Shown piece by piece: positions 1 through 62,600 of a stretch of 64,000 bases of DNA. This stretch comes from Vairimorpha necatrix (Eukaryota), in NCBI GenBank assembly GCA_036630325.1, contig CP142726.1, positions 1-64,000 of the forward strand, given 5' to 3'. The notes below the pieces were generated by a model. It did not search any database. It was not told the DNA's origin and saw nothing but the letters and a program-made list of their open reading frames with translations. A program made the position numbers and the translations under genes. Every line of letters begins with the position of its first letter. Within the stretch, counting starts at the first letter, position 1.

Positions 1-1535
1 CCTACCTAACCTACCTACCTAACCTAACCTAACCTACCTACCTAACCTACCTAACCTACCTACCTAACCTACCTAACCTACCTAACCTAACCTACCTAAC
101 CTACCTAACCTACCTAACCTACCTAACCTAACCTACCTAACCTACCTACCTAACCTACCTAACCTACCTACCTAACCTACCTACCTAACCTAACCTAACC
201 TACCTAACCTACCTACCTAACCTACCTACCTACCTAACCTAACCTACCTACCTAACCTACCTACCTAACCTAACCTAACCTACCTAACCTAACCTACCTA
301 ACCTAACCTACCTAACCTACCTACCTAACCTACCTAACCTACCTACCTACCTACCTAACCTACCTACCTACCTAACCTACCTACCTACCTAACCTACCTA
401 CCTACCTAACCTAACCTAACCTACCTAACCTACCTACCTAACCTACCTAACCTACCTAACCTAACCTACCTAACCTACCTACCTACCTAACCTAACCTAA
501 CCTACCTAACCTACTACCTACCTAACCTACCTAACCTACCTAACCTACCTACCTAACCTACCTACCTACCTAACCTACCTACCTACCACCACCTACCTAC
601 CTACCTAACCTACCTAACCTACCTACCTAACCTAACCTACCTACCTAACCTACCTAACCTAACCTACCTAACCTACCTACCTACCTAACCTACCCTACCT
701 ACCTACCTACCTACCCTACCTAACCTACCTACCTACCTAACCTACCAACCTACCTACCTAACCTACCTAACCTACCTAACCTACCTAACCTACCTACCTA
801 ACCTAACCTAACCTACCTAACCTACCTACCTACCTACCTACCTACCTAACCTACCTAACCTAACCTACCTACCTAACCTACCTAACCTACCTACCCTACC
901 TACCTAACCTACCTAACCTAACCTACCTACCTAACCTACCTACCTACCACCACCTACCTACCTAACCTACCTACCTAACCTAACCTACCTAACCTACCTA
1001 CCTACCTACCTAACCTACCTACCTAACCTACCTACCTAACCTACCTAACCTACCTACCTACCTACCTAACCTACCTACCTAACCTACCTAACCTAACCTA
1101 ACCTACCTACCTACCTACCTAACCTACCTACCTACCTACCTACTCTACCTAACCTACCTACCTAACCTACCTAACCTACCCTACCTAACCTACCTAACCT
1201 ACCTACCTACCTAACCTACCTAACCTACCTACCTAACCTACCTAACCTACCTAACCTACCTACCTACCTAACCTACCTAACCTACCTACCTAACCTACCT
1301 AACCTACCTAACCTACCTAACCTACCTACCTACCTAACCTACCTAACCTACCTAACCTACCTACTACCTACCTAACCTACCTACCTACCTAACCTACCTA
1401 CCTACCTAACCTACCTACCTACCTAACCACCTACCCTACCCACCCAACCTACCTACCACCTACCTACCTAACCTACCTAACCTAACCTACCTACCTACCT
1501 AACATACCTAACCTAACCTACCTATCTAACCTAAC
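1..1535. repeat. Telomeric tract of mixed CCTA/CCTAA units (G-strand TAGG/TTAGG)
   Basis: Continuous C-rich repeat from base 1, ending abruptly at ...ctaacctaac|acgtaagc. The C-rich strand at the 5' end indicates a left chromosome end. Rare variants (ccta>cta, cca, cccta) occur. Confidence 0.95.
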
Positions 1536-1619
1536 ACGTAAGCTTTTAGCCCTCAAACCTTTCTAAATCTTTTGTTTAAAAAATTTATCAATTAAATCAA
1601 TATGTAACTAAAATAAATA

Positions 1620-1692
1620 AAAATTGAAAATTTGTATAAAAATTGAAAATTTGTATAAAAATTGAAAATTTGTATAAAAATTGATAATTTGT
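1620..1692. repeat. 19-bp tandem repeat (aaaattgaaaatttgtata), about 4 copies
   Basis: ttgaaaatttgt recurs at 1624, 1643 and 1662, with a variant at 1681. Confidence 0.85.
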
Positions 1693-1753
1693 TTTTAAAT
1701 TTTATCTAACTATCTTTATAATTAAATTATTTTTTTTCAGATTAATGATTATA

Positions 1754-4700
1754 TGTTATACTTTTATTTAATAGGGGGTTCAACCCAACATCCCCCTAAG
1801 ACGTGTAGTCTCAGGTTACAAGCTTCTAATTTTTCATTTTAATAATCTTTTAGGTCATAATGTCGTTTCTTAATGTATCTTCAGCTATCAGTCCTTACAA
1901 TATAAGAATAATTCTCGCACTTTCCCATTATTTTACCAACATTTGTGAATCTTCCTATCATATTTTTCATCTATTTTCCCAAAATTTTATCTTGCGATTT
2001 TCACAGCCTGATCTACTTCAAGTTTTTCTCTATGATTTTGTTTAAACTTACTTGCATATTCATCCTTTTCATCAATTTCCATAAAGACTTCTTCTCCTTA
2101 TTCTTTCCATGCTTCCATTGGTGTACATTTTATCGCTGTGTAGAGTGTTATTATAGGTTCTTACAGCTTGTTCTAGTTTTTCCTCTGGGTTTCCTTGTTT
2201 TTGATTGATCATCAATTCCCTTATTGTTCAAATACATCGTTCTATTCTTCCATTGCTCCTATGAGATTCTAAACCTACTTTCCGTTGTATAAATTTGTTT
2301 TCTTTACACCAAGTTACGTACTTCTCAGTGAAATATTTCTTACCGTTATCCGAAATATTCATCTAGGCATCCATCTTCATTTATCAATTAACCTAAAATT
2401 TTCGTAATAACATCACTTCCCTTATTTCCTATCTTTGCGCCCCATACTCTTCTTGTAAAGGAGTCAGTCCCTAATAGCACGTATTTTTCTTTTTTTTCAA
2501 TATCCATTACGTCTAAAGCTACTTTTTCTAATTTCTTAAATGTTGTTACAAATTTGGAACCTCCGGTCGTTTTTATGTTATTAATGCAACATACTTTACA
2601 ATTTTTTAGCATTGTGGTTATCTGGTCCAATACCTTGCCAGTACAGTCTTTGTTTTTCCTTATAATAAGTTTTTTCACTCCTCGATGATTTAAATCCTCA
2701 TGAACTCTGGAATTTCTGTCTCTCTTAGTTCTTTGTGTAGTAGTTCTTTAATTTCTCCTGTTGAGAACTTCAAATAGTTTTTACCTTCTCTTTTAACCAT
2801 GCGCTTTATTTGTCTCCCTTTCATCTGTTTTTAAGTCCGTTTCTATCTTTCGCTGCTTTTTTTATCACTTTGTTATTTTTAAATTGTCTACTAAGAGCAT
2901 CTACATCCGTCATCCATTCTCCTTTTACATATTCAATAGTAAAATCGAACTCTTGTATGTTTTTTATCCATCTATTATTTTTGTTAGTTTTGCGAAACGG
3001 TTTGTTTCTAATCTCAGCCAGTTCTTTATGATTTGTCATTTAATGAAATTTGCTTCTCTCAAATCGGATTCGAATTTCTTTATTCCAAATAACACTGTCA
3101 ACATCACTTTTTCATTAATCATATACCTTTTTTCTGTTGCTGTTAACATTTTTGATGCCCATTGTATCTGATTCCACCTTCCTTCTTTGTCTTCTTGCAA
3201 TAGTATAGCTCAAGTTCCCGTATCGTATGCATCTGTCCTTACTCTACACATTTTTTTACTATCTACCATTTTTAATTTTTTCACATCCTTTAAACCCTCT
3301 TTGATATCCATAAGAGCTCTTTCCATATCTTCGGACCATTCCCATTTAACATCTTTTTTTAGTGCTTCTGTAAGAAGCGCTGAAACATAAGCATAATGGG
3401 GAATAAAATCTCTTAACCAGCCTGCACGTCCTCAAATCTCTTAAGCTCTTTCATCTTGTTAGGCCTTCTGTATTCTAATGTCTCTTGCTTTTAAATTTCA
3501 TTTGGAGTTATGTCTTCTCCGTTAATTGTTACTCCAAGTAGTTTTACTTCTCCTTTATATTGTATTTTTTTTAAGTTTTTTTTAATCCACATTCGTTAAA
3601 TAATCGAATTACTTGTTTTAATAAATTTTCGTTTATATTACTATCTCTTGCATGAATAATAATAATATCATCCATATACACCTCAACACTCTTGCCTCTA
3701 AACTTATCTAAAACTCCGTTCATCACTTTTTACATAAAATAGGAAGATTTTTAAATCCCATTACCATGCTATTCTTTTTGTAAACTCTAACATTTATCTC
3801 AAAAGCTTTCTTATGCTTTTGAGCTTTCTTAATTTCTATATGATAGAATCCTTCCTTTAGTTCTATAACCATAAATACAATAGAACCTTATGTTGCCCTA
3901 ATAATGTCTCTAATCAATGGCAATTCATACGGATCTTTTTGCACCAGTTCGTTTAAAGCCATCAAATTGCTTCTAAATTGTACTTCACCATTTAGTTTTT
4001 CTATAGTACTTATTGGGCTTCTCCATTCGCTCTTTGTCCTTCTGAAACTACCTCTACTTTCTTTTAAATTAATATACTTTTCTAACTTTTCTCGAATTAT
4101 AAGAAATATTTTGTCTTTTTATAACTACTTTCACTTCTTGTTTTGTTTTGATAGAATATTTTCCCCCTGTTAAGTATTTTATTTTCCTTTCGTCTTTTCC
4201 TAATACATCAGGAAATTTTCCTTCCAATTCTTCATATTTAATAATATTTTTTCTCTTTTTATCTTGGTTTGTATTTTCCACATAAAAACTGTTTCTTATG
4301 TTCCTCTTTCTACCTCCACTGATAGTCTTAATTTAAAATCATTTTTTTTTAATATTTTCTTTTTACTATTATCACGAACCAAAATATTAAACACTTTTAT
4401 TTTTATTATTCTATTCTTGTTCTCCTTACGCTCTTTACAACCTCTAGCTATATGTATTATTTTCCACATATAAAACAATGGTTTTCTTCTCGTCTTTGAT
4501 ATCAAAAGTTTTTTGCTGGCACTGCTATAGTCCTAGTCAGTTATCCTTTAATCTTCTTTTATATTTTTCTTTCATAACCTCTACCATATATTCAAGTTCT
4601 CTACTCCTTAATTTTTCCTTGTTCTTATTCTCTTTCTTTTCAACAACTAATTTATCAATTTCATCAATAATATCATTCCAATTAATCATACTGGTCAAAT

Positions 4701-4922
4701 TTTTATCAATAATAAAATCCTGAAGTTCAGAAACTTACTTGTTTTATCGACTGCTTTGTTGTCACATCTTTTACATCTTTCTGCATTCTGATGATTGCTT
4801 CAACTCTCTGGGCTTCTTTTAGTAATTTTCTCTTCTCTTAAACACAGGTCTCACTTGTTACCCTTTCATCTTTTGTGTTTGCCATGTTATACATTTATTT
4901 AATAGGAGGTTCAACTTTAACA
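1754..4922 (-). mobile_element. Degenerate full-length mini Ty3/gypsy LTR retrotransposon, copy 1 (37/38-bp LTRs)
   Basis: LTRs 1754-1790 (tgttatacttttatttaatagggggttcaacccaaca) and 4885-4922 (tgttatacatttatttaataggaggttcaactttaaca). TSD TTATA at 1749-1753 and 4923-4927. PPT (TAGGGGGA) and PBS-like TGGCAAACACAA. Frameshifted CCHC knuckle, RT (YMDD at ~3668-3679), RNase H (DVDALSR) and integrase (ALDVMD, FTRRVWG). Confidence 0.92.
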
Positions 4923-6850
4923 TTATAATTAAAACACAAAGTATTTTTGGTGTAATTCTGCGAATAAATTTATGTAAAAATACATTGTAAAAGTATTGAA
5001 TCATGTCTTTATTTTGTAATATATTATTGTAAAAAATGTCATTCTTGTGTTTTGACATATTTCTTACTGGAAATATTCGTATTATAATAGAAAAAAAATA
5101 TTTTAGGGATATTATACAAATAACTTAAATCTCGAAAGCTTACTAACGCATATATACAGACATAGGAGCTCATAATCTTTAGGAAAGCTTATGATAAATA
5201 CTTTGAATAATAAAATTGAATCATTTTTCCAAGAAAGTAAAATGACGTGATAATTTGGAAACATTAAGGACTAGATTCCAGTGTTTGTTTAAAAATACAA
5301 TACGAATAACTAATTACAGTTGAATATTTCACTATAAAATTACGTGATATAAAAATAGATCAATGAAAGTAATTAAGATTTATGTATAAATTAATATGAT
5401 TTAATTTATTTTTATAACATAAGAAATTTTAGAAAAAAAATTGTTTTTTTAAATTTTTATCGAATATTTATATCTACTTGGCTGCTGCATAGGGATGCGT
5501 CTTCTTCTAATGTACAATTCTATGTATCTATGTATTTGCCCAACTGTTCAGGAAGTCTTTTATAAGTACAAATGATATGGTGTCTATTTTTTATGTTCTC
5601 TTTGGACTTCAATTTTTTATGGTAGAAAATATAATATTTTAAAAATAAGAGGGGGTGAAAATATTGGATAATTAAAAAATACATTCTATAAGAAATATAT
5701 TTGATTATGTGATCATAATCTCCTAGATATGTTTTTATATTTTCTGTTATAACCGTTAGATTTACTTCTTGATTGATCTTCATATAATTTTAATTATGAG
5801 GAGAACCAGTTTGATATATTGATAACCAGTTAATATTGATAAATTTTTTGCGATTCCGATATGTTGTATATTCAAAATTATTGCGTAAAAAATTGCGGAT
5901 GGTTTAAAAGTAACCTATCATTATCTATGAAAATGTTTTACATAATGTGTATATTAAAATGTATTTTTTATGATGTAACACTTTCATGGATTATTGAAAA
6001 ATTCCAATTTTTAATTAAATCATTAGATTGATTTCATTCTACGAAAATCAAAATGTTTATTCCAAAAAAATTCATAAAAATTTTTTTGTTAAAATATTTA
6101 CAATTTAATTTATCAATTTATTATTATATTTTTTTTATCAATTGATATTTAAATTAAATATTATTTGATAATTAATAATAATCGTCAACCGCATCTATGT
6201 TTAATATGTAATTGGGTTTATGCATTAAACTATTTTCTGTCATTATTAAAAATAAGAATTGTTTTTTTAATTTATATGCTCTTACATTATATTATCCTTA
6301 AATTTATATAAATATCTTTTGATTAGTTGCATTGGGTTTTGTTTATACTTTTTATTAACCCTTATTAGCTCTTATTAATTTATATTTTTAAATTCTTCGG
6401 TTAGTGTAGTTTTTTTTCGTAAAAATACTAATTCTGTTTTATTTTGATTTTATTTTTATCATAATTTTAGTATAAATAATAAATACGTGGAATATATGAT
6501 ATTTACTAGAAAAATTCATATGAAGAAATACGAAATTCATTTCCAGCTTAGTTTTGTGTATAAATTTACAATTTGTATAAATATTGATTATCTTATTATT
6601 CGAAATGTATTTATATTGTTTTCTGACCATTATTAGATTTATTTCTTAATTATTTATAATTATTTTCATTTGAATAATTTTTTGTAGTTTATTTTATAAT
6701 ATTTTTACAGATTATAACCAAAAATTTCAAAATACTGTTTTAATATAGGATAACAGAATGGAATGTTCGTTGTTGTGTTCCTATATAGATGTTTATATTT
6801 TATTTTTGTCGTATGTCTTATGTTTCTTTGAGACTTTAAATTTTCATTAT

Positions 6851-31971: not shown

Positions 31972-34269
31972 TCACTCTTCTTTATCTTTTATTGTTTTTA
32001 CTAAATCATCATGTAATGTTATTCCTGATTTATTTAAACTTTTTAATATGCCAATTTCACCTAATATGTTAACCATCCTTCTAAGAATTTTTTCGCAAGC
32101 ATATTGTTTAAATGCTTCATTATTTAAACTATTTTCGATAAGTGAAACAGAAACTCTTGGTAAATCTCTTTCACAACTTCTTTTTGTATTTTTGTCAATA
32201 AAAGCACTCAATTCAGCAAAGAATGTAATCAAAATGTTATCATTATATTCGAGTAGAATATTTTTGTCATATTTATCTATGAATTTAATCAATTCGTGAG
32301 TTTCAATATCACCTATATAAATATTTGTTATTTCTTCTCTTCCTCTTTCTCTTAAGTCATTTTCAAATTTAGTTCTTGTCTTTTCATCGTATAAATTTTC
32401 AATATTTGCATTTAAAGCTTCATTTTTCAAAGACATTAACTTTAATCTATGTATTTTTATATTTATTTTATTTAAGAGTGTCGTTATTTCAGATCTTTTA
32501 ATCTTTATTTCTTCTTCGCTCATTTTTAGATGGCTAATGCTTTCGATAATATTTTTAATATTATAAAAATACTTTAAATTTTCTTTTTTAATGTCTTCTA
32601 AATGTTTTTCTAATATTTTTTTACTTACCGTATCGTAATTTTTAGTAACTTCATTTTCCCCGAGGCCCAAATTTGCGATCTCATTACTTTTTACGATATA
32701 ATAATAATAATCAGCTGCAATGCATTCAGTCTTTTCTAAACCTGTAAACAATGCCGCAAATTTATATACAACCTTCCAAATATTTCTTTTATATATTTTT
32801 ATATCCGCAAGACAATTTTTTATTAAATATTGATATGCTTTACACAAATTAATATTATCTTCGCTCGAGATAATGTTCATTGAATTTTCCTGCGACGGAA
32901 CTAATTCAGTAATTCTTTTCAAAGTCCCAAATATTGGTTCATCGAATACATCGTTTTTATTAATAAGCTCTTCAGCTTCTAGCAATAAACAGATTTTAAT
33001 TAGATAGGTACTTGATGACTTATAGCCGCGCGAAAATATATCCTGTAGTGCTTCCAAGATTATTTGCCTTTCTGTTTTATTTCTCTGTTTTTTTCCTATT
33101 GTCAACTCTAGTTCGTTTTTATTAATTATATTCTGACAGTCTATAAGATATTTAAAAATAATATTCAGAACAGTGCTTGTTTTATCTAAAATTCTATTTA
33201 ATAAATAAAGTACTTGATTATTATTACTCATCAACCTATAAAACAATTCTATGATATTTTCTTTCTCTTTCATTTGTTCTATTGCATAAATTTTTTTAAA
33301 AAATCCTTGAAATTCTAAATAAGTTTTTTCATAAATGAATAATTTAGTTTCACCTCTACCTACCTTCTTTCTTAAAATATATTTAAAATTATCAGTGTTA
33401 ATAGTAAGACATAATTTTTCACATTCTAAACCCATTTGTATTTTGTTTTCGAAAAATTCAATTTTATTGAGTTCACAAACTGAAAAGCGTGAAGGATGTA
33501 AGGAACCGATATCATCAGTAGAAACAAAAGCATACAAATCACAAAACAACCTACTAATCAGATCATGACTTTCATCTTCATGTGGAGGCTCAAATTCTAC
33601 CAGTGATAATATCAAATTTCTATCAAGTTCTTTAACATCTATTTCAAAACAATAATATATATTATCTAATTGAATACTAATAACTAAATAAATTCCTTCT
33701 GTATTTTCTTCAATATATAGCGGAATTTTATAATCGATCCGAACTCCGTATAATTCCAAATCATCTCTCAATACTTTGGTCATTCTATACCATAGAGAAT
33801 CGATGCCAATTATATATTTATAAATGATATCAGGACGTATGTGCATTTCTTTTCGTTCGTCATTTATTTTTTCTATCCGTTTGATAATTCTTTTATAGAA
33901 TGCATTAGTTCTACAATTGTTTGGTCTGTATATTAATATTATAGCATCTGCTGCTTTTTTTTTGTATTTAATAAATAATTTTTCTTCGAATTTCTTTAAG
34001 ATATTATCAATAGATTTGTTCTCCATATCCACAATCAAATATTCTGATTCTTCAAAATGCCAAGGAAAAGTTGTAATCTTAATTCCTGCTTTTATTGCAT
34101 TTTTGCGAAGGTGAAAATTAAACATTACACATAAATATCTGCTTTCATTATTCAAAAAACAATAATCTCCTACTGCTATTTTATTTAAAAAAGCAATTTT
34201 TAGATTATTATACACAATATCCGAACATTGTACAACTAAAAATGCTACAACAAATTTAATTATATTCAT
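31972..34269 (-). CDS. 765-aa hypothetical secreted protein (N-terminal signal peptide, Lys/Ile-rich, no recognised domain)
   Basis: Long intact ORF with signal-like start MNIIKFVVAFLVVQCS. CCCC lies immediately before the ATG. Confidence 0.88.
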   Translation of the reverse strand: MNIIKFVVAFLVVQCSDIVYNNLKIAFLNKIAVGDYCFLNNESRYLCVMFNFHLRKNAIKAGIKITTFPWHFEESEYLIVDMENKSIDNILKKFEEKLFIKYKKKAADAIILIYRPNNCRTNAFYKRIIKRIEKINDERKEMHIRPDIIYKYIIGIDSLWYRMTKVLRDDLELYGVRIDYKIPLYIEENTEGIYLVISIQLDNIYYCFEIDVKELDRNLILSLVEFEPPHEDESHDLISRLFCDLYAFVSTDDIGSLHPSRFSVCELNKIEFFENKIQMGLECEKLCLTINTDNFKYILRKKVGRGETKLFIYEKTYLEFQGFFKKIYAIEQMKEKENIIELFYRLMSNNNQVLYLLNRILDKTSTVLNIIFKYLIDCQNIINKNELELTIGKKQRNKTERQIILEALQDIFSRGYKSSSTYLIKICLLLEAEELINKNDVFDEPIFGTLKRITELVPSQENSMNIISSEDNINLCKAYQYLIKNCLADIKIYKRNIWKVVYKFAALFTGLEKTECIAADYYYYIVKSNEIANLGLGENEVTKNYDTVSKKILEKHLEDIKKENLKYFYNIKNIIESISHLKMSEEEIKIKRSEITTLLNKINIKIHRLKLMSLKNEALNANIENLYDEKTRTKFENDLRERGREEITNIYIGDIETHELIKFIDKYDKNILLEYNDNILITFFAELSAFIDKNTKRSCERDLPRVSVSLIENSLNNEAFKQYACEKILRRMVNILGEIGILKSLNKSGITLHDDLVKTIKDKEE

Positions 34270-55456: not shown

Positions 55457-56610
55457 AAAAAAAGAATTGAAGATATAGACAACAAAAAAATACCGATGTT
55501 CATAAAAAGAAAACTTACGAAAAAAATCTAAAGTTTCTAACACAGCTTTAGAAATTAAATGTAATATTTTTAATTGGTAATATATATTATAAAGAAAATT
55601 TGCTTTTTTAAATTTTTAAGAATCATTTTAGAGATAATTTTTGTTTTCGACATAGCTGAGAGCAATTGTATGATTCTTTTGAGAATTAAATGTGTTAAAC
55701 AAGAAGCGGACACGAGAATAATTCTTTATTATGAACATGGATAATTGTAGTGACCAAATAACTAACAAGCTAGCTTGAGATGCGTAAAATCAACGGCATA
55801 CTAGAGTATATACAAAGTCTTCTACATCAGAAGTGATTTTTGTATATATCTGATAACTTTTTAAGGTATAAGCTTGAAGTTGCTTGAAAGAAAGGTCTAG
55901 AGCTGTAAAACACTGATCAGACAGACAAATACTATAAAGAAGAAGCGCGAATGAGTTGACCCAGTAAAATATATAAAATTTACAAAAATGAACATTTGCA
56001 GTAAATACAAAACTGGATAACTTAATTTTTCTTGATAATGTTAATTTATACATCAATATTTTCTATAATCGAAAATTATTAATCATAGTCTTTTATTTAA
56101 ACTACATGGTTCTTTTATTTCGTTTAAATATATAACGTATTTATATTTCTTTTTATTGATAATTTTAAAGTGAAATTATTTGTAATATTATACTAAATAT
56201 TTGAAATTTATTGACCAACTTTGTCTTTAGGTATATGGTTTCTAGTATAGTAAATTAAGATAAAATTTTTGTTTTCAAAAGATATAAGTAAACATTTACA
56301 AATATACATAATTGATTATGCTAAAACATTTTACGTATGTAAATGCTATAATATTTTAAAAAACGTTTTTAGTGATTATAATTAAAACACTTAGAAAGCA
56401 TATCAAAAATTAATTTAGAGTAATCATATGGCAAAATTGATCTAAAACAAGATAAAAATCACAAATAATCAAGTTTCTCCCAAATTTTAAAAAAATGATT
56501 TGATTACAAAAAAATTGTAACTAGTTATCATTACTTTTAATTTATCATAGACGATATAAATAACTCGCTATTTTTTTTAGATAATGTTAACCATTTATTT
56601 ATTGAGGGTT

Positions 56611-59112
56611 CTAAACCCTACATCCCCCCTCCAGACGGGTAGTCTCTCCATCTTCTAAACAACTCTTCCTTATCTCTTTCAAATCATAATGCCTCTTTTT
56701 AACAATTTTACCATCCAGTAGTCTCACAATATATGAATCATTTTCACTTATAGCTACGATCCTTCCGCGACCCGTGAATCTTCCCTTGTCTGTTTTCGCA
56801 CGTGTACCTAAATTTTCTCTCCTAGCGATTCTTACCTCTTTGCCTACTGTAAATGTCTCTCTGTGTCTTCTCTTGAACCGACCAGCATATTTTCCATTTT
56901 CATCATTTTCAATTATAACTTCAGCAGTTTGATCTCTCCACGCTTCCATCGGCGTACATTTTATTGCTGTATGTAGTGTATTATTATATCCTTTGATTGC
57001 TCTTTCTATCTTTTCAGAAATATTCCCATCATTCAGCTTTATCAATGTCTCTCTTATAGTTCTGATGCATCTCTAGATTCTACCATTACTCCTATGAGCT
57101 TCTAAGCCCACTTTCCTATGTTTAATATCATTAATACTACATCATTCTTTAAATCTATTACTTACAAACTCTTTTCCGTTGTCTGTCACATATTCCTCTG
57201 GAAATCCATCTTCCCTTATCCACTTTTGTAATACCTCTATAACTTCACTACTCTCTTTACACCTCAAATTCGAACCCCACAACCTTCTAGTAAAGTAATC
57301 AATACCCAGTAACACATACCTATTCTCTCCACCTATGTCCATTAAATCCAACGCCACTTTCTCCAATTTCTTTCTAGTTACTACGAAATCACATCCTCCT
57401 GTGTTTTTCCTATTGTTAATCCCACATATTTCACAATTCTTAATTACCTTATTAATATGATCTTTCATACCAGGCCAATACCATCTTTGTTTAATGTTAT
57501 AATAAGTGCCTTTGACACTTCTATGGTTTAACTCCTCATGTACTCTTGTTATTTCATGTTCTCTACTATCTAGGCTCAATATCTCTTTCACCTCACCTGT
57601 GGAAAATTCCCAATACTGTTTACCGTCCTTTTCTTTAATATGTTTCTGCTTTTTTCCCAAAATTTGTTTTTCGATCACTTCTTTTCTCTTGTTGTCCTTT
57701 TCTTTTTGTTAATCCGAAACTTCTACCTGATCATACTGCCTACTTAACGCATCTGCATCTGTCATCAACTCCCCTTTCACATACTCTATTGTAAAGTCAA
57801 ACTCTTGTATCTGTTCTACCCATCTGTTTATTCTGTTATTATTGAAGTATGGCTTATTTCTGATCTCTGCTAATGCTTTATGATCCGTCATCAAATGAAA
57901 TTTCCTTCCTCTCAAATCACTTTCAAACTTCTTTATTCCAAAAAACACCGCCAACATCTCCTTCTCACTTATCGTATATCTTCGCTCGGTAGGAGTCAAC
58001 ATTTTCGATGCCCATTGTATCGGAATCCACTCACCCTCTTTATTTTCTTGTAATAGAATTGCTCCGATCCCCGTATCACACGCATCAGTTTAATACTCTA
58101 AATAGCTTTTTTCCGTCCGGAATCTTCAACTTTTTCATATCTCTCAAGCCTTGCTTCATATCCTCAAAAGCTCTTTCCATATCCTCCGTCCAATTCCACT
58201 TAACATCTTTCTTTAAAGCCTCAGTAAGCCTTACTGTTCTATACGCATAGTTGGGAATAAAGTCTCTAAACCAACCAGTTAGTCCTAAAAATCTTCTTAA
58301 CTCTCTAACATTCTCAGGTTTTCTATATTCCAATGTCTCCTGCTTTTTAATCTCATTCGGTCCCATGACCTCCCCATTAATTGTTACTCCCAGCAACATC
58401 ACCTCATCTTTTTTGTATTGTATCTTTGTTTGGTTTATTCTCAACCCACACTCTTTAAACTTTTTAATTACCCTCTCTAGTAACTCGTCATGCACTCTTA
58501 CGTCTTTACCATGAATAACTATATCATCCATATATACTTCCACGCCTTTACCTCTGAATTCATCTAAAACTCTGTTCATTACTCTCTGCATTATATGAGG
58601 CGAATTCTTAAACCCCATAACCATACTATTCCATTCGTATACTCGACCATTCACTTCAAATGCTGTTTTGTGCTTATGGTGCTCCTCAATCTCAATATGA
58701 TAAAACCCTTCTTTTAAGTCGATAACCGTAAATACTTTTGACCCCTGTGTGGCTCTCATAATATCCTTAATTAACGGTAGTGAGTACGGGTCCTTGTCAA
58801 CCAAATCGTTTAACGCCATCAAATTGCTTACCAATCTTACGTCCCATTTGGTTTTTCAAGTTCTCTTTTTGGACTTCTCCACTCACTTTTGGAACGTCTT
58901 ATAACCCCTCTATTTTCCAACTTATTCAAGTACTCCTCAAATTTCACCCTAAGGTAGTATGGCACATTCTGCCCTCTTTTCACAACCTTTTCACCTTGCT
59001 TAGTATTTATTGGACACTTCTCTCCTGTGAGATATTTTATCTTTTCTTCTGATTCTTTAAAAACTTCCGGATACTTTTCAATTAAATTTTCTAACTTATT
59101 TACTGTTTTACA
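56611..59112 (-). pseudogene. pol: pol: RT, RNase H and integrase, with 2 frameshifts and 3 internal stops
   Basis: DLKEGFYHI, MGFKNSP, YMDDIVI; TDACDTG, EKEMLAV, ADALSR; HEELNH..CEIC, ALDLMD, TDNGKEF. The third catalytic residue position (SNGRI-E-R) reads TAG at ~57074. Confidence 0.92.
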
Positions 59113-59613
59113 TCATTTCCCTTCATTGTTGATAATTGGTTCTTTCTGTAAAACTTGTTCCTTTTTAATTTTATATTTTTCCCTACCAGCTACACTTTCA
59201 TGACATTCTCTAGCGTAATGCCCTTCTTTCTTACATATAAAACATTTTGTAGTTTCTCTGATTTCCCTTCTTTTCCTATACATCCTAAGATTTTCTTTTC
59301 TTTCTTCCCTAAACTCTTTCAACACTTTATCCATAATCTCTTTAATCATTTCTTGTCTTTCTTCTGACTCTCTCTCAAATTCTGCTCCTTTTTGTAAGCC
59401 TTTATAAATTTCCTCCCAACTGCTCCTTCCGTCACAAAAATTTTCAAAAATATAATCCTGCAAGTTCGCAGATGCCAAATCCATAACATCTTTCCACTCA
59501 ACTTTCAATATTAACTTTAGTCTCTTATCTATCCTAATTGCCTCTTTCTCTAATGTTCTAGCCTCTTGACTACGGGACTCTCTTGTTTCCCTGTTCATCC
59601 TTGTGTTCGCCAT
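59113..59613 (-). CDS. gag: Short Gag (~166 aa) with CCHC zinc knuckle
   Basis: CFICKKEGHYAREC. The MANT N-terminus is conserved with copy 1. Confidence 0.8.
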   Translation of the reverse strand: MANTRMNRETRESRSQEARTLEKEAIRIDKRLKLILKVEWKDVMDLASANLQDYIFENFCDGRSSWEEIYKGLQKGAEFERESEERQEMIKEIMDKVLKEFREERKENLRMYRKRREIRETTKCFICKKEGHYARECHESVAGREKYKIKKEQVLQKEPIINNEGK

Positions 59614-62600
59614 GTTAACCATTTATTTATTAAGGGTTCTAAACCCTACAGATAATGTTCTATAAGATATAACTTTTACAAATGTATTTTTTATAAAAAA
59701 TCGATTCGAATGTATTTATTACATAAATTTAAATTTTAAGGGCAGAGAATGGATTTAAGGGTTAATACAAAAACCATTTATAACTTTAAATATTCAATAG
59801 AACCCTTTTGCAGTTTAACATTATACATATGCTGAAAATAACTTCGGTATAATTTATTTTAATAAATGTTTTTATTGCTAATATTATTCTACTTGTTTTG
59901 TAAAACATTAATTTAATGTACTATTAGCAAATTAATAATATTTTGAAGTTTATAGCTCATACTAATGTGTTCATGACAAATTAAAATTCAAAACTAACGA
60001 GGTCTACAAAACATATGCCAATGTATTATAGAAAGTCTTTAATTTCTATTATACAACTAAACGTTAAATATATACTTAAAACATCAATGTTATTTTTTAT
60101 TTTTTACTTATAAAATAACGTTTTTTTTTCGAATTAACAAAATATTTAGATTGTAACAAATTTTATATAAGTATTTCAAACTACCCAAGAATATAAACTA
60201 TTGTGGAAATTTTTTAAAAAATCATAATACCAATGTATTTGTCTAAAAAATTCTCTTTACTATACAATCATTGCATCTATATGGTAGTAACGAATTGATA
60301 TATTGTGGCTGTTAAATGTATTATTTTTAATACACAATTTACTTTACCTCATACCTTACGATGTGTATTTTAGTGTATAGATTGCTTTATAAAAACAAAA
60401 ACTGACTTTAATAAATTAATAAGATGGTAATATTTGAAAATTTACATTGGTACTACAAAAGAAGCTGGTAAATTTGCAGATTTTCAAAAAATTTCTCTTC
60501 AAAGAAGAAGGTTTAACGTCCGTAAAAAAACATTGCACATAGCTTTTGTTATTGTCATTGATTTTCTTTTTTAAAATAGATTTGTTAAATAATGCGTTCC
60601 TTTCCTTTTAATATTTTTAAATGGATAAAATATATATTTATTATTATTATTAGTAAATAATTTACAGTAGATGCATTGGGTAAGTATCTACAATAAAGTA
60701 TTACTGAAGTGTCTTAGTATCTATATCATCATCTTGTAAATGGTTTTCTTATGTTTACAGTAGCAAAAAAACGAATATGAAAAAAATAAAAGTCAAGAGG
60801 TCAAACTAAAGGTGAGGACACCAGGAAAAAATTTTACAATAATGTATAGTATCGTAAACGTAGCATGAATAATTAAAATAAAGTAAAATTTAAGAGAAAG
60901 TCTTTATTGAAAAAAAAACAAGAAACTCTTGATTAGGCACACATTTAAGTGTTCATTTTTTAGAAAAAAGGGATTCATGTATATGGCATTTGTATCAAAT
61001 TAAAAGTATCTGAAATTTTTTTTTGATTTTTTTAAGTAAAAAAAATTGTTGAATTTTCTAATCATTTGCATGTTATTGATTCTAAAACAAAAATTGAACG
61101 CAATAAACCAGATATATGAAGCGCTCAATAGTTTTATCGAAATTACATATTAAAAATACAATTTGATATATGAGAAATCGCGAGCATTGACAGAAGCGAT
61201 TTGTTTTATGCAAATACGAAAATTAATTAAAAAATAGATAAGACCTAGAGCCTCTTAATGCAGATAATCACTTAATAAATTACAAAAAAATAAATTGTTT
61301 ATTTAAAATAAACCACTTTAAGAATACGATGCCTTTACTAAGTATGATCACAATGTAAATATAAAAAAAAATTTTATTTAAATGTTTAATTTTAGTTTAG
61401 TCTTGCACCAAATAAACTTGATACCTATAATTTGTGCAGTTGAGAAAACGACGATCAAGACGAATTTAAAGATGAAGAGTAGACTAATTCCTATTTATCA
61501 GGTTCTGATAACTAAACTGGCAATTATTCATTGTGTTGCTCTCATTTCTGCTTTCAATGTGGTTTTATGTTCAATCCAAGTGGAATTTCATTAGGGTTTT
61601 AATAAAAATGTAATATCCAAATTTTAATGTGTTAATTTTCACTTAAGCGTTGACTACGTGAAATTAGGTTAGGTTTATATAAAATTGCATGATTAAACCT
61701 TTGTAACTTGTCATTAAATGTTTTACGTTAAGAATTGATATATTAATAATTAATATATCATATCTTAATATGTTTTGTCCACAATAATACGATTGATCAA
61801 ATGAAACAAATCACTTGTTTAACCTTTGACTAATATAATAATATAAAATTTAAAGCTATGGTTTCTGACAAATCACAAAAAAAATTTATGCTAAAATATC
61901 AAACCTTAGCTTTTTGAGATGGTTTTTAATATTAATATAATGCAAAAGAAATCAAATTCTTATATATTTTTTCGTAGACAAAAAAAATTTTCAGTACAAC
62001 TACCATTCAAAGGTCCATGTACAAACACAATTTTATGATATATATATATATAAGAATTTATTGTGCAAAAAAAAATATATTTATAATTAATGCATGCGAC
62101 AACTTCATTATTACAGTATATCAGTTAATAGATAAAAAACTTAAAAGCGATTGTTTCTTATAGATATTATGTACTGTAACAAATGAACCATTGCAAAAAG
62201 TAATAAAGTTATATGTTTACTAATTTTAATTCCTAAAACTTTGTGTATAAGGCAAACAAATTTTGATACATACAGCAATGTTTATTATATCTTTTAAAAA
62301 CAATTCTTTGAACTTATGTGTTTGAATTTAATTACTATATTTTATTTCTTGTTTTATAATAAAAAATTCTATGAAACAATTATACGCGGATTTTCAATAT
62401 TGATTTTCGCTAGTATATGTTAATTACATTGAAAAAATACTCTTATGTATGTGTTTCTGTTTTAAATTTTTTTTATTAATTTTAGCCGAAATGTATGAAT
62501 TGTATTTACAAATTAAAAAACCTTTTTAAGAGCATAAGATTTGATGTTTATCATAAACAAATATCCTGCTTATTTAGTGCATAGATTTTTGTATGTTATA

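Follow-up and report, generated by a model that had tools for sequence, protein, structure and literature searches.

The first 64,000 nucleotides of contig CP142726.1 of the microsporidian Vairimorpha necatrix (assembly GCA_036630325.1, positions 1 to 64,000 of the forward strand; hereafter the window) start with a telomere array, and close to this array, at positions 1754-4922, lies a decayed long terminal repeat (LTR) retrotransposon of the Ty3/gypsy type, which occupies 3169 bp on the minus strand and will be referred to as e2. A sister copy of the same design, e1, is found at 56585-59650. A preliminary description, made from the letters of the DNA, had reported LTRs of 37 and 38 bp for e2 and had proposed that such a short LTR is an old, heritable property of the family rather than an accident. 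By comparing e2 with e1 and with relatives from outside the window, we found that the mini-LTR is indeed supported as an inherited trait and that it appears to form part of a wider design, namely, a very compact element with a single polyprotein in which neither a protease nor a capsid domain can be recognized. The features of e2 and its direct flanks are listed below (position in the window, strand, feature).

1-1533, no strand: telomere array of mixed 4- and 5-base units (CCTA x208 and CCTAA x129)
1749-1753, no strand: target-site duplication (TSD) TTATA, telomere side
1754-1790, minus: 3' LTR, 37 bp, TGTTGGGTTGAACCCCCTATTAAATAAAAGTATAACA; the GGGT/ACCC stem is retained and the putative ancestral pol stop, TGA, lies in the loop
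1791-1798, minus: polypurine tract (PPT) TAGGGGGA, adjoining the 3' LTR
1799-1812, minus: conserved block GAGACTACACGTCT, directly upstream of the PPT, with the inverted repeat AGAC/GTCT
2284-2735, minus: integrase remnant (zinc-binding and catalytic core regions), approximate, mapped via the protein P0008
2948-3338, minus: RNase H remnant, approximate
3523-4076, minus: reverse transcriptase (RT) remnant, approximate; YMDD is legible in the stitched translation
4433-4477, minus: broken gag CCHC zinc-knuckle remnant, CFICGK followed by a stop
4873-4884, minus: primer-binding site (PBS) TGGCAAACACAA, abutting the 5' LTR and serving also as gag codons (the final A of the LTR plus TG gives ATG, read M-A-N-T)
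4885-4922, minus: 5' LTR, 38 bp, TGTTAAAGTTGAACCTCCTATTAAATAAATGTATAACA; hairpin lost through G>A and C>T, with an in-frame ATG 9 nt ahead of the junction ATG
4923-4927, no strand: TSD TTATA, centromere side

The features by which an LTR retrotransposon is recognized are all in place in e2, i.e. direct repeats of the TG...CA type, a TSD in the range of 4-6 bp, and a PBS and a PPT directly beside the 5' and the 3' LTR, respectively. Both LTRs start with TGTT, carry AATAAA within and end in TAACA, and they are 5 substitutions and 1 indel apart. The insertion was of the integrase type, with a 5-bp duplication, TTATA. These findings bear out what had been described for the LTRs, the TSD, the PBS and the PPT; likewise, the lengths given for the two copies (3169 vs 3066 bp) and the distance of ~220 bp to the telomere were reproduced, as the array ends at 1533 and leaves a gap of 220 bp. 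The GGGTT..AACCC hairpin that had been ascribed to the LTRs holds for the 3' LTR, where it has a 4-bp stem (-3.7 kcal/mol), but not for the 5' LTR, where the corresponding AAAGTT..AACCT does not fold (0.0). A tblastn analysis with intact relatives returned the body order gag (CCHC knuckle), RT, RNase H and integrase, and the mapping of these relatives revealed at least 8 frame changes and ~28 stops. The copy at 1754-4922 is an old, long-dead subtelomeric insertion and, taken as a single copy, an ordinary one.

Contigs of the sequencing runs X1 and X2 give depth in 28 and 24, respectively, of the 30 bins over 1300-5500. Among the pieces listed (16 of 301), which measure 132-328 nt, none spans the boundary 1753/1754 or 4922/4923. 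One X1 contig departs from the window inside the 3' LTR of e2 and continues into a variant LTR/PPT junction, which hints at further copies.

The sister copy e1 shows the following features, to which a PPT reading GGAGGGGGGA has to be added.

56580-56584 and 59651-59655: TSD GATAA
56585-59650, minus: e1, 3066 bp, same design as e2
56585-56622 and 59613-59650, minus: LTRs, matching at 37/38 positions
59601-59612, minus: PBS TGGCGAACACAA, listed with the element as TGGCGAACACAAGG

Decay of e1 is light (2 frameshifts, 4 stops). Pieces of its open reading frame (ORF) match the Pfam families zf-CCHC, RVT_1 (E 1.5e-30), RT_RNaseH, Integrase_H2C2 and rve, and its gag and pol parts are split only by a stop and frameshifts, where relatives read continuously. 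The proteins of e1 and e2 had been called clearly diverged and so they are, to a large extent through decay of e2: the identity amounts to 67% over 402 residues of the stitched RT-RNase H region and to 51% over 836 codons, with 64.7% for the nucleotides in a global alignment. Split by codon position, the identity in these 836 aligned codons is 0.68 (first), 0.71 (second) and 0.41 (third). A comparison of the nonsynonymous and synonymous substitution rates (dN/dS), suggested in the preliminary description as a check, yields 0.27 by LWL85, which is a rough figure only, since one long high-scoring segment pair hides frameshifts and dS is saturated (dS undefined by NG86, no estimate by YN00).

Phylogenetic relations were derived from a tree of the RT-RNase H region (79 rows, quick IQ-TREE run, LG+G4), from which 7 of 81 proteins were excluded for covering no more than 300 of the 421 reference residues. 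Instead of belonging to unrelated clades, the outcome by which the preliminary description would have been refuted, the RTs of e1 and e2 share one clade of 6 rows with proteins of Nosema granulosis (98 in the Shimodaira-Hasegawa-like approximate likelihood ratio test, SH-aLRT), in which the terminal branch of e2 measures 0.47 vs 0.092 for e1. Their LTRs, earlier described as different in sequence, align over the whole length and are diverged homologues. The two copies are thus diverged members of one subfamily and not independent lineages, and the decay of e2 accounts for much of the distance between them. It follows that the second copy is not the independent showing for which it had been taken: because both copies sit in one small clade, it lends by itself only modest weight to an inherited trait. 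No further copies or solo LTRs were found in the window by blastn, tblastn or LTR patterns.

Among the changes assigned to the e2 lineage, G>A on the sense strand predominates, with 132 cases (0.27 per site) vs 23 of the type C>T (0.155 per site), and the G+C content is 30.5% in e2 vs 35.9% in e1. Hypermutation or editing of e2 was considered and rejected: there is no preference for a dinucleotide context, and the raw excess comes mostly from the G-rich sense strand. We read the G>A excess as the likely outcome of AT-biased decay.

The evidence that the mini-LTR is inherited comes chiefly from outside the window. A protein search recovered a clade of single-ORF polyproteins of ~1000 aa, the named sources of which are all microsporidian (among them Nosema granulosis, Vairimorpha apis, V. 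necatrix, Enteropsectra breve and Pseudoloma neurophilia) and which has many more members in unnamed assemblies. In the RT-RNase H tree this clade comprises 56 rows (support 100), with protease-bearing gypsy elements outside. The DNA of relatives outside the window could be read in three cases, denoted L003, L011 and L012. The first of these, a distant relative on a metagenome contig, belongs to a different subclade (7 rows, SH-aLRT 95); its LTRs measure 39 bp, agree with each other except at 1 of 39 positions and are flanked on either side by TTATA, and it has a spacing of 3124 bp, the PBS TGGCACCCAGTC and the PPT AAGGCGGGGA. In the case of L011, a contig of 3024 bp from a metagenome-assembled genome (MAG) labelled Clostridium, the end of the ORF (...ETTRLEEGMLGY) is followed by a PPT, a 38-bp LTR close to that of e2, and unrelated flank. 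In the case of L012, a 47-bp TGTT...CACA segment lies ahead of the PBS; its 3' end is missing and the segment is unconfirmed as an LTR. The PBS sequences differ between subfamilies, the variants being TGGCGAACACAAGG, TGGCACCCAGTC and TGGCAACACCGA.

The same design can be read from proteins. We counted signatures at the N- and C-termini of the 28 near-full-length relatives (at least 940 aa). In fourteen of them, [H/Y/N/D]-M-[A/G] lies no further in than residue 14, which corresponds to the encoded junction of LTR end and PBS (...NAC-A|TG-G(C/G)...), and 5 more start with MA or MG, so that 19/28 are found in all. At the other end, the C-terminal tail equals the translated PPT in 11/28 (GGD, GDV, GGC or GML). 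In addition, the longest contig measures 3035-3283 bp for an ORF of ~3000 nt in 18/28, which leaves no space for long LTRs. In many family members the ORF starts inside the 5' LTR, runs through PBS and PPT, and stops inside the 3' LTR; in such members there is almost no non-coding base. The claim that the short LTR is old and inherited in the family, and not an accident, is supported by this sequence evidence, to which L003, L011 and the 28 relatives contribute the main part.

A further shared feature is a block GAGACT(N2-4)CGTCT with the inverted repeat AGAC/GTCT, which lies upstream of the PPT in 4/4 elements with readable DNA (e2 1799-1812; e1 56632-56645; L011 2699-2712; L003 3646-3657). 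Since the block is read in different frames (as ETTRL or as ETPS), the constraint would act on the nucleotides rather than on the protein, and the block may be a cis-acting element for plus-strand priming. The pol stop lies in the loop of the GGG..CCC hairpin of the 3' LTR in e1 (TAG, 56611-56613), in e2 (TGA, with the ancestral frame inferred) and in L011 (TAG, within L011 positions 2724-2761). As a family trait the hairpin had to be rejected, being present in e1, the 3' LTR of e2 and L011 and absent from L003 and the L012 segment.

A phmmer search with the gag ORF of e1 against 1.84 billion representatives gave 68 matches at E<=0.001. The 9 that reach E<=1e-10 are short gag pieces of 82-210 aa, and most others match in the zinc knuckle only. 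Gag evolves too fast for such a search to size the family. A scan of viral contigs found no relative. MAGs labelled Clostridium sp. and Turicibacter sp. accounted for 50 and 18 matches, mostly to other or longer gypsy elements or to fragments. The retroelement contigs in the MAGs of L011 and L012 are eukaryotic binning contaminants and not bacterial genes.

The polyprotein itself is reduced. Among the 23 aligned relatives, RVT_1, RNase H, Integrase_H2C2 and rve are found by Pfam in 23/23 and zf-CCHC in 15/23, and a retropepsin family at E<=1 in 0/23; a weak Peptidase_A17 match lies in the RT/RNase H region. The stretch from the zinc knuckle to the RT leader is variable and K/E-rich and has a median length of 64 aa (range 36-176, n=23). 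Only 2 of the 28 near-full-length relatives contain D[ST]G ahead of the RT. No capsid or Retrotrans_gag family appears among the matches listed (25 of 45 families, E<=1), nor in the table for P0008. An AlphaFold model of P0008, built on the 23-row alignment (mean predicted local distance difference test score, pLDDT, 77.8), is helical over residues 14-135, with one helix at 69-135, followed by the knuckle and a low-confidence linker at 158-191; up to residue 260 it lacks any strand as long as 3 residues. Residues 1-210 of the model thus consist of a few helices (one of ~67 residues), a CCHC knuckle and a disordered K/E-rich linker, a layout which we take to be nearer to a coiled coil plus knuckle than to a two-domain retroviral capsid. 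In a profile search against the PDB the best match was Ty3 Gag-Pol (7q5b_A, E 1e-109), with positions 216-655 aligning to Ty3 578-1012. Against chains named as protease/RT/RNase H (7kse_A, 7ksf_A), profile positions 193-579 align to residues 117-499, and the N-terminal ~116 residues of these chains stay unmatched. Judged from sequence and predicted structure, the family is devoid of a protease and of a recognizable capsid domain; a divergent capsid in its gag is still conceivable.

Among the known systems, Ty3 of Saccharomyces cerevisiae resembles the family in the homology and the order of RT, RNase H and integrase, in the CCHC knuckle of gag, in the TG..CA ends, in a PBS that starts with TGG, in the PPT and in the 5-bp TSD. 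This order was found in e1, in 23/23 relatives and, by tblastn, in e2, and the clade nests among gypsy elements, whereas the aspartic protease between gag and RT is not present. Ty3 has LTRs of 340 bp and a length of ~5.4 kb, as compared to 37-39 bp and ~3.1 kb in the family. Unlike in Ty3, there is no protease or recognizable capsid domain, only ~215 residues precede the RT vs ~577 in Ty3, and LTRs, PBS and PPT are all overlapped by coding sequence. Tf1 has one continuous gag-pol ORF with a protease, and its own 5' end provides the primer; the family shares with Tf1/sushi-type elements the single ORF for gag and pol, but it lacks the protease, as well as an upstream complement of the PBS, so that a tRNA primer is expected. 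The terminal-repeat retrotransposons in miniature (TRIMs) are elements with very short LTRs (~100-250 bp) plus PBS and PPT that are non-coding and non-autonomous, whereas the family encodes RT, RNase H and integrase and has LTRs that are shorter still. The family is of Ty3/gypsy descent and operates in the manner of such elements, but it lacks one defining feature, the protease, and stretches another, LTR length, far beyond the usual range.

Parisot et al. 2014 (PMC4202319) describe, in the passages available, Ty3/gypsy clades specific to microsporidia in which gag and pol are fused in one polyprotein, a description repeated in the accessible part of PMC13174016. The family has microsporidian hosts and gag and pol in one ORF, and it is very likely one of these single-polyprotein gypsy groups (Parisot 2014 / Nbr). 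The passages of Parisot 2014 give no LTR length, the main text never mentions a 'protease', and a search of the supplement, one file excepted, returned no match, although its tables may still list LTR lengths. An overlap with the Nbr elements of Nosema bombycis (Xu et al. 2006) is possible, although these elements differ in that they contain a protease according to the passages seen of Williams 2008 (PMC2474625). No description of the mini-LTR, protease-less design was found in the searchable literature, to which Xu et al. 2006 does not belong.

We consider it highly probable that e2 is the dead remnant of an old insertion and that it stems from a very compact family of LTR retrotransposons which branches within Ty3/gypsy (Metaviridae) and has a mini-LTR that would be the minimum allowed by the microsporidian host. 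Such an LTR would consist of the integrase end-sites TGTTRNR...YNYAACA around a core promoter of the host style (CCC 10-11 nt upstream of the ATG) plus AATAAA. Indeed, the LTR ends of the family fit the TGTTRNR...YNYAACA integrase motifs, with AATAAA in the middle, and CCC or CCCC is found 10-11 nt before the LTR-internal ATG in e1, the 5' LTR of e2, L011 and L003; where LTR and PBS meet, the A that ends the former and the TG that opens the latter make up a second ATG. According to the sections available of Benachenhou 2013 (PMC3601003), the TGTTRNR...YNYAACA ends and AATAAA are conserved in LTRs generally, and according to those of Peyretaillade 2009 (PMC2803860), microsporidian genes have 5' untranslated regions (UTRs) of <7 nt and AAUAAA near the stop, and their start codon is closely preceded by a CCC-like motif. 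From these sequence features we propose that the mini-LTR represents an ordinary core promoter of the microsporidian kind, together with a start codon, between two integrase sites.

Given 5' UTRs of <7 nt, transcription would start at about LTR position 22-28. With a start within or after the AATAAA of the 5' LTR, only the copy in the 3' LTR would act as a poly(A) signal; U3 would then comprise ~20-25 nt and R (+U5) ~10-16 nt, to be used in the first strand transfer. As there is no complement of the PBS upstream of it, priming would be expected from a host tRNA and not from the element itself. As there is no protease, the polyprotein would probably function uncleaved.

Several observations weigh against this picture or parts of it. 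Both LTRs together with a TSD were seen in just 3 elements (e1, e2 and L003). According to the available text of Williams 2008 (PMC2474625), which cites Xu 2006, a protease is encoded, along with Gag, RT, RNase H and integrase, by nearly all elements of Nosema bombycis; these would belong to another group, or else the protease was assigned by position. AATAAA lies only 9-18 nt from the LTR end, so that cleavage ~20 nt downstream falls outside the LTR in e1 and e2. The window contains 0 tRNA genes (ARAGORN) and thereby no partner for the PBS. Finally, that the family is active is deduced from intact ORFs and purifying selection.

If the mechanism holds in full, the family is possibly the smallest self-sufficient LTR retrotransposon yet seen, i.e. 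an element of ~3.0-3.1 kb with mini-LTRs, a coding PBS and PPT, no protease or true capsid, an uncleaved polyprotein acting on its own RNA and an R of ~10-16 nt. We advance this stronger claim tentatively, as we hold it to be slightly more doubtful than probable. Alternatively, the family may not be self-sufficient, so that other retroelements or the host would have to provide the protease, and perhaps the capsid, in trans, as is the case for non-autonomous elements. Canonical Ty3/gypsy elements require a protease for maturation, and no protease or capsid domain is found in 23/23 aligned members; the N-terminal part of the P0008 model is all-helical. Protease-bearing elements of Nosema bombycis are reported in the passages of Williams 2008 (PMC2474625). 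However, many sources have retained the design together with an intact ORF of ~1000 aa, and no protease-bearing relative is located inside the 56-row clade; we regard supply in trans as unlikely.

The position of e2, 220 bp from the array, could be taken to mean that the family inserts preferentially at, or is preferentially retained at, chromosome ends. Apart from this one insertion, the surrounding 64 kb is gene-poor (5 ATG-ORFs of at least 150 aa outside the elements), and the accessible part of PMC13174016 places the long interspersed nuclear elements (LINEs) and LTR elements of Microsporidia sp. MB mostly at chromosome termini or in discrete central regions. Yet e1 lies ~55 kb from the array, telomere repeats were found beside an element in 0 of 40 fetched loci, and a single case makes statistics impossible; we hold a telomere preference to be rather improbable.

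The short repeats themselves have been taken here as genuine LTRs of an inherited compact design. They might instead be stumps of ordinary-length LTRs, left by deletion or misassembly. To our knowledge, the LTRs of autonomous elements range from ~80 bp upward, which puts 37-39 bp outside, and a mere three elements display both repeats. Nevertheless, e1, e2 and L003 come from different sources and agree in their boundaries: each is flanked by a perfect 5-bp TSD of its own, with the PBS 1 nt after one repeat and the PPT 1 nt before the other; self-BLAST detects no end-to-end similarity past 37-39 nt; the LTR-end/PBS junction is encoded by the first residues of the 19 intact relatives counted above; and the contigs of 3035-3283 bp in 18/28 have no space for long LTRs. 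The stump explanation is therefore close to refuted and to be given very little credence. That the repeats and TSD arose by chance around a decayed RT fragment in AT-rich subtelomeric DNA (G+C of the window 24.8%; short A/T-rich repeats are common, with 13 direct-repeat families in 3.8 kb) is already refuted, since the 28/30 gapless matches of the e2 repeat pair (spacing 3131 bp) were reached in 0/100 dinucleotide-preserving shuffles of 1534-5400 (best shuffle 24), and since the repeats can be aligned to LTRs from both e1 and L011 and exactly abut the PBS and the PPT.

The interest of the compact Ty3/gypsy family resides in its design, as established jointly by e2, e1 and the outside relatives. 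If functional, it would set a new lower bound for an LTR retroelement (an LTR of ~38 bp, no protease, almost no non-coding sequence), and neither long LTRs nor proteolytic maturation would be essential to the LTR-retroelement life cycle. LTR size may track the promoter architecture of the host, in the sense that tiny microsporidian promoters and UTRs would permit tiny LTRs. Standard LTR finders have a default minimum LTR length of ~100 bp. The usual length thresholds would miss the family, and for microsporidian genomes this would lead to errors in retroelement content and in dates drawn from LTR divergence. Bins of metagenomes can suffer as well, as two MAGs labelled Clostridium and Turicibacter contain such contigs.

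With respect to the surroundings of e2, the telomere array is an irregular mix of CCTA (208) and CCTAA (129) units and not pure TTAGG or TTAG. A stepwise shortening of the telomere motif across microsporidia is described in the available text of PMC13174016, and the array of the window looks like an intermediate or slippage-prone state. Between the array and e2, at 1617-1692, there is a 19-bp tandem repeat, ATAAAAATTGAAAATTTGT, in 4 copies with 98% matches; X1 contigs skip 57-60 bases here, which suggests copy-number variation. The region 5000-56000 is very gene-poor, and none of the 5 ATG-ORFs of at least 150 aa outside e1 and e2 contains a Pfam family. One ORF of 765 aa (31972-34269, minus strand) has an uncharacterised relative in Vairimorpha necatrix with 67% identity and no other match, and may belong to a lineage-specific subtelomeric gene family.

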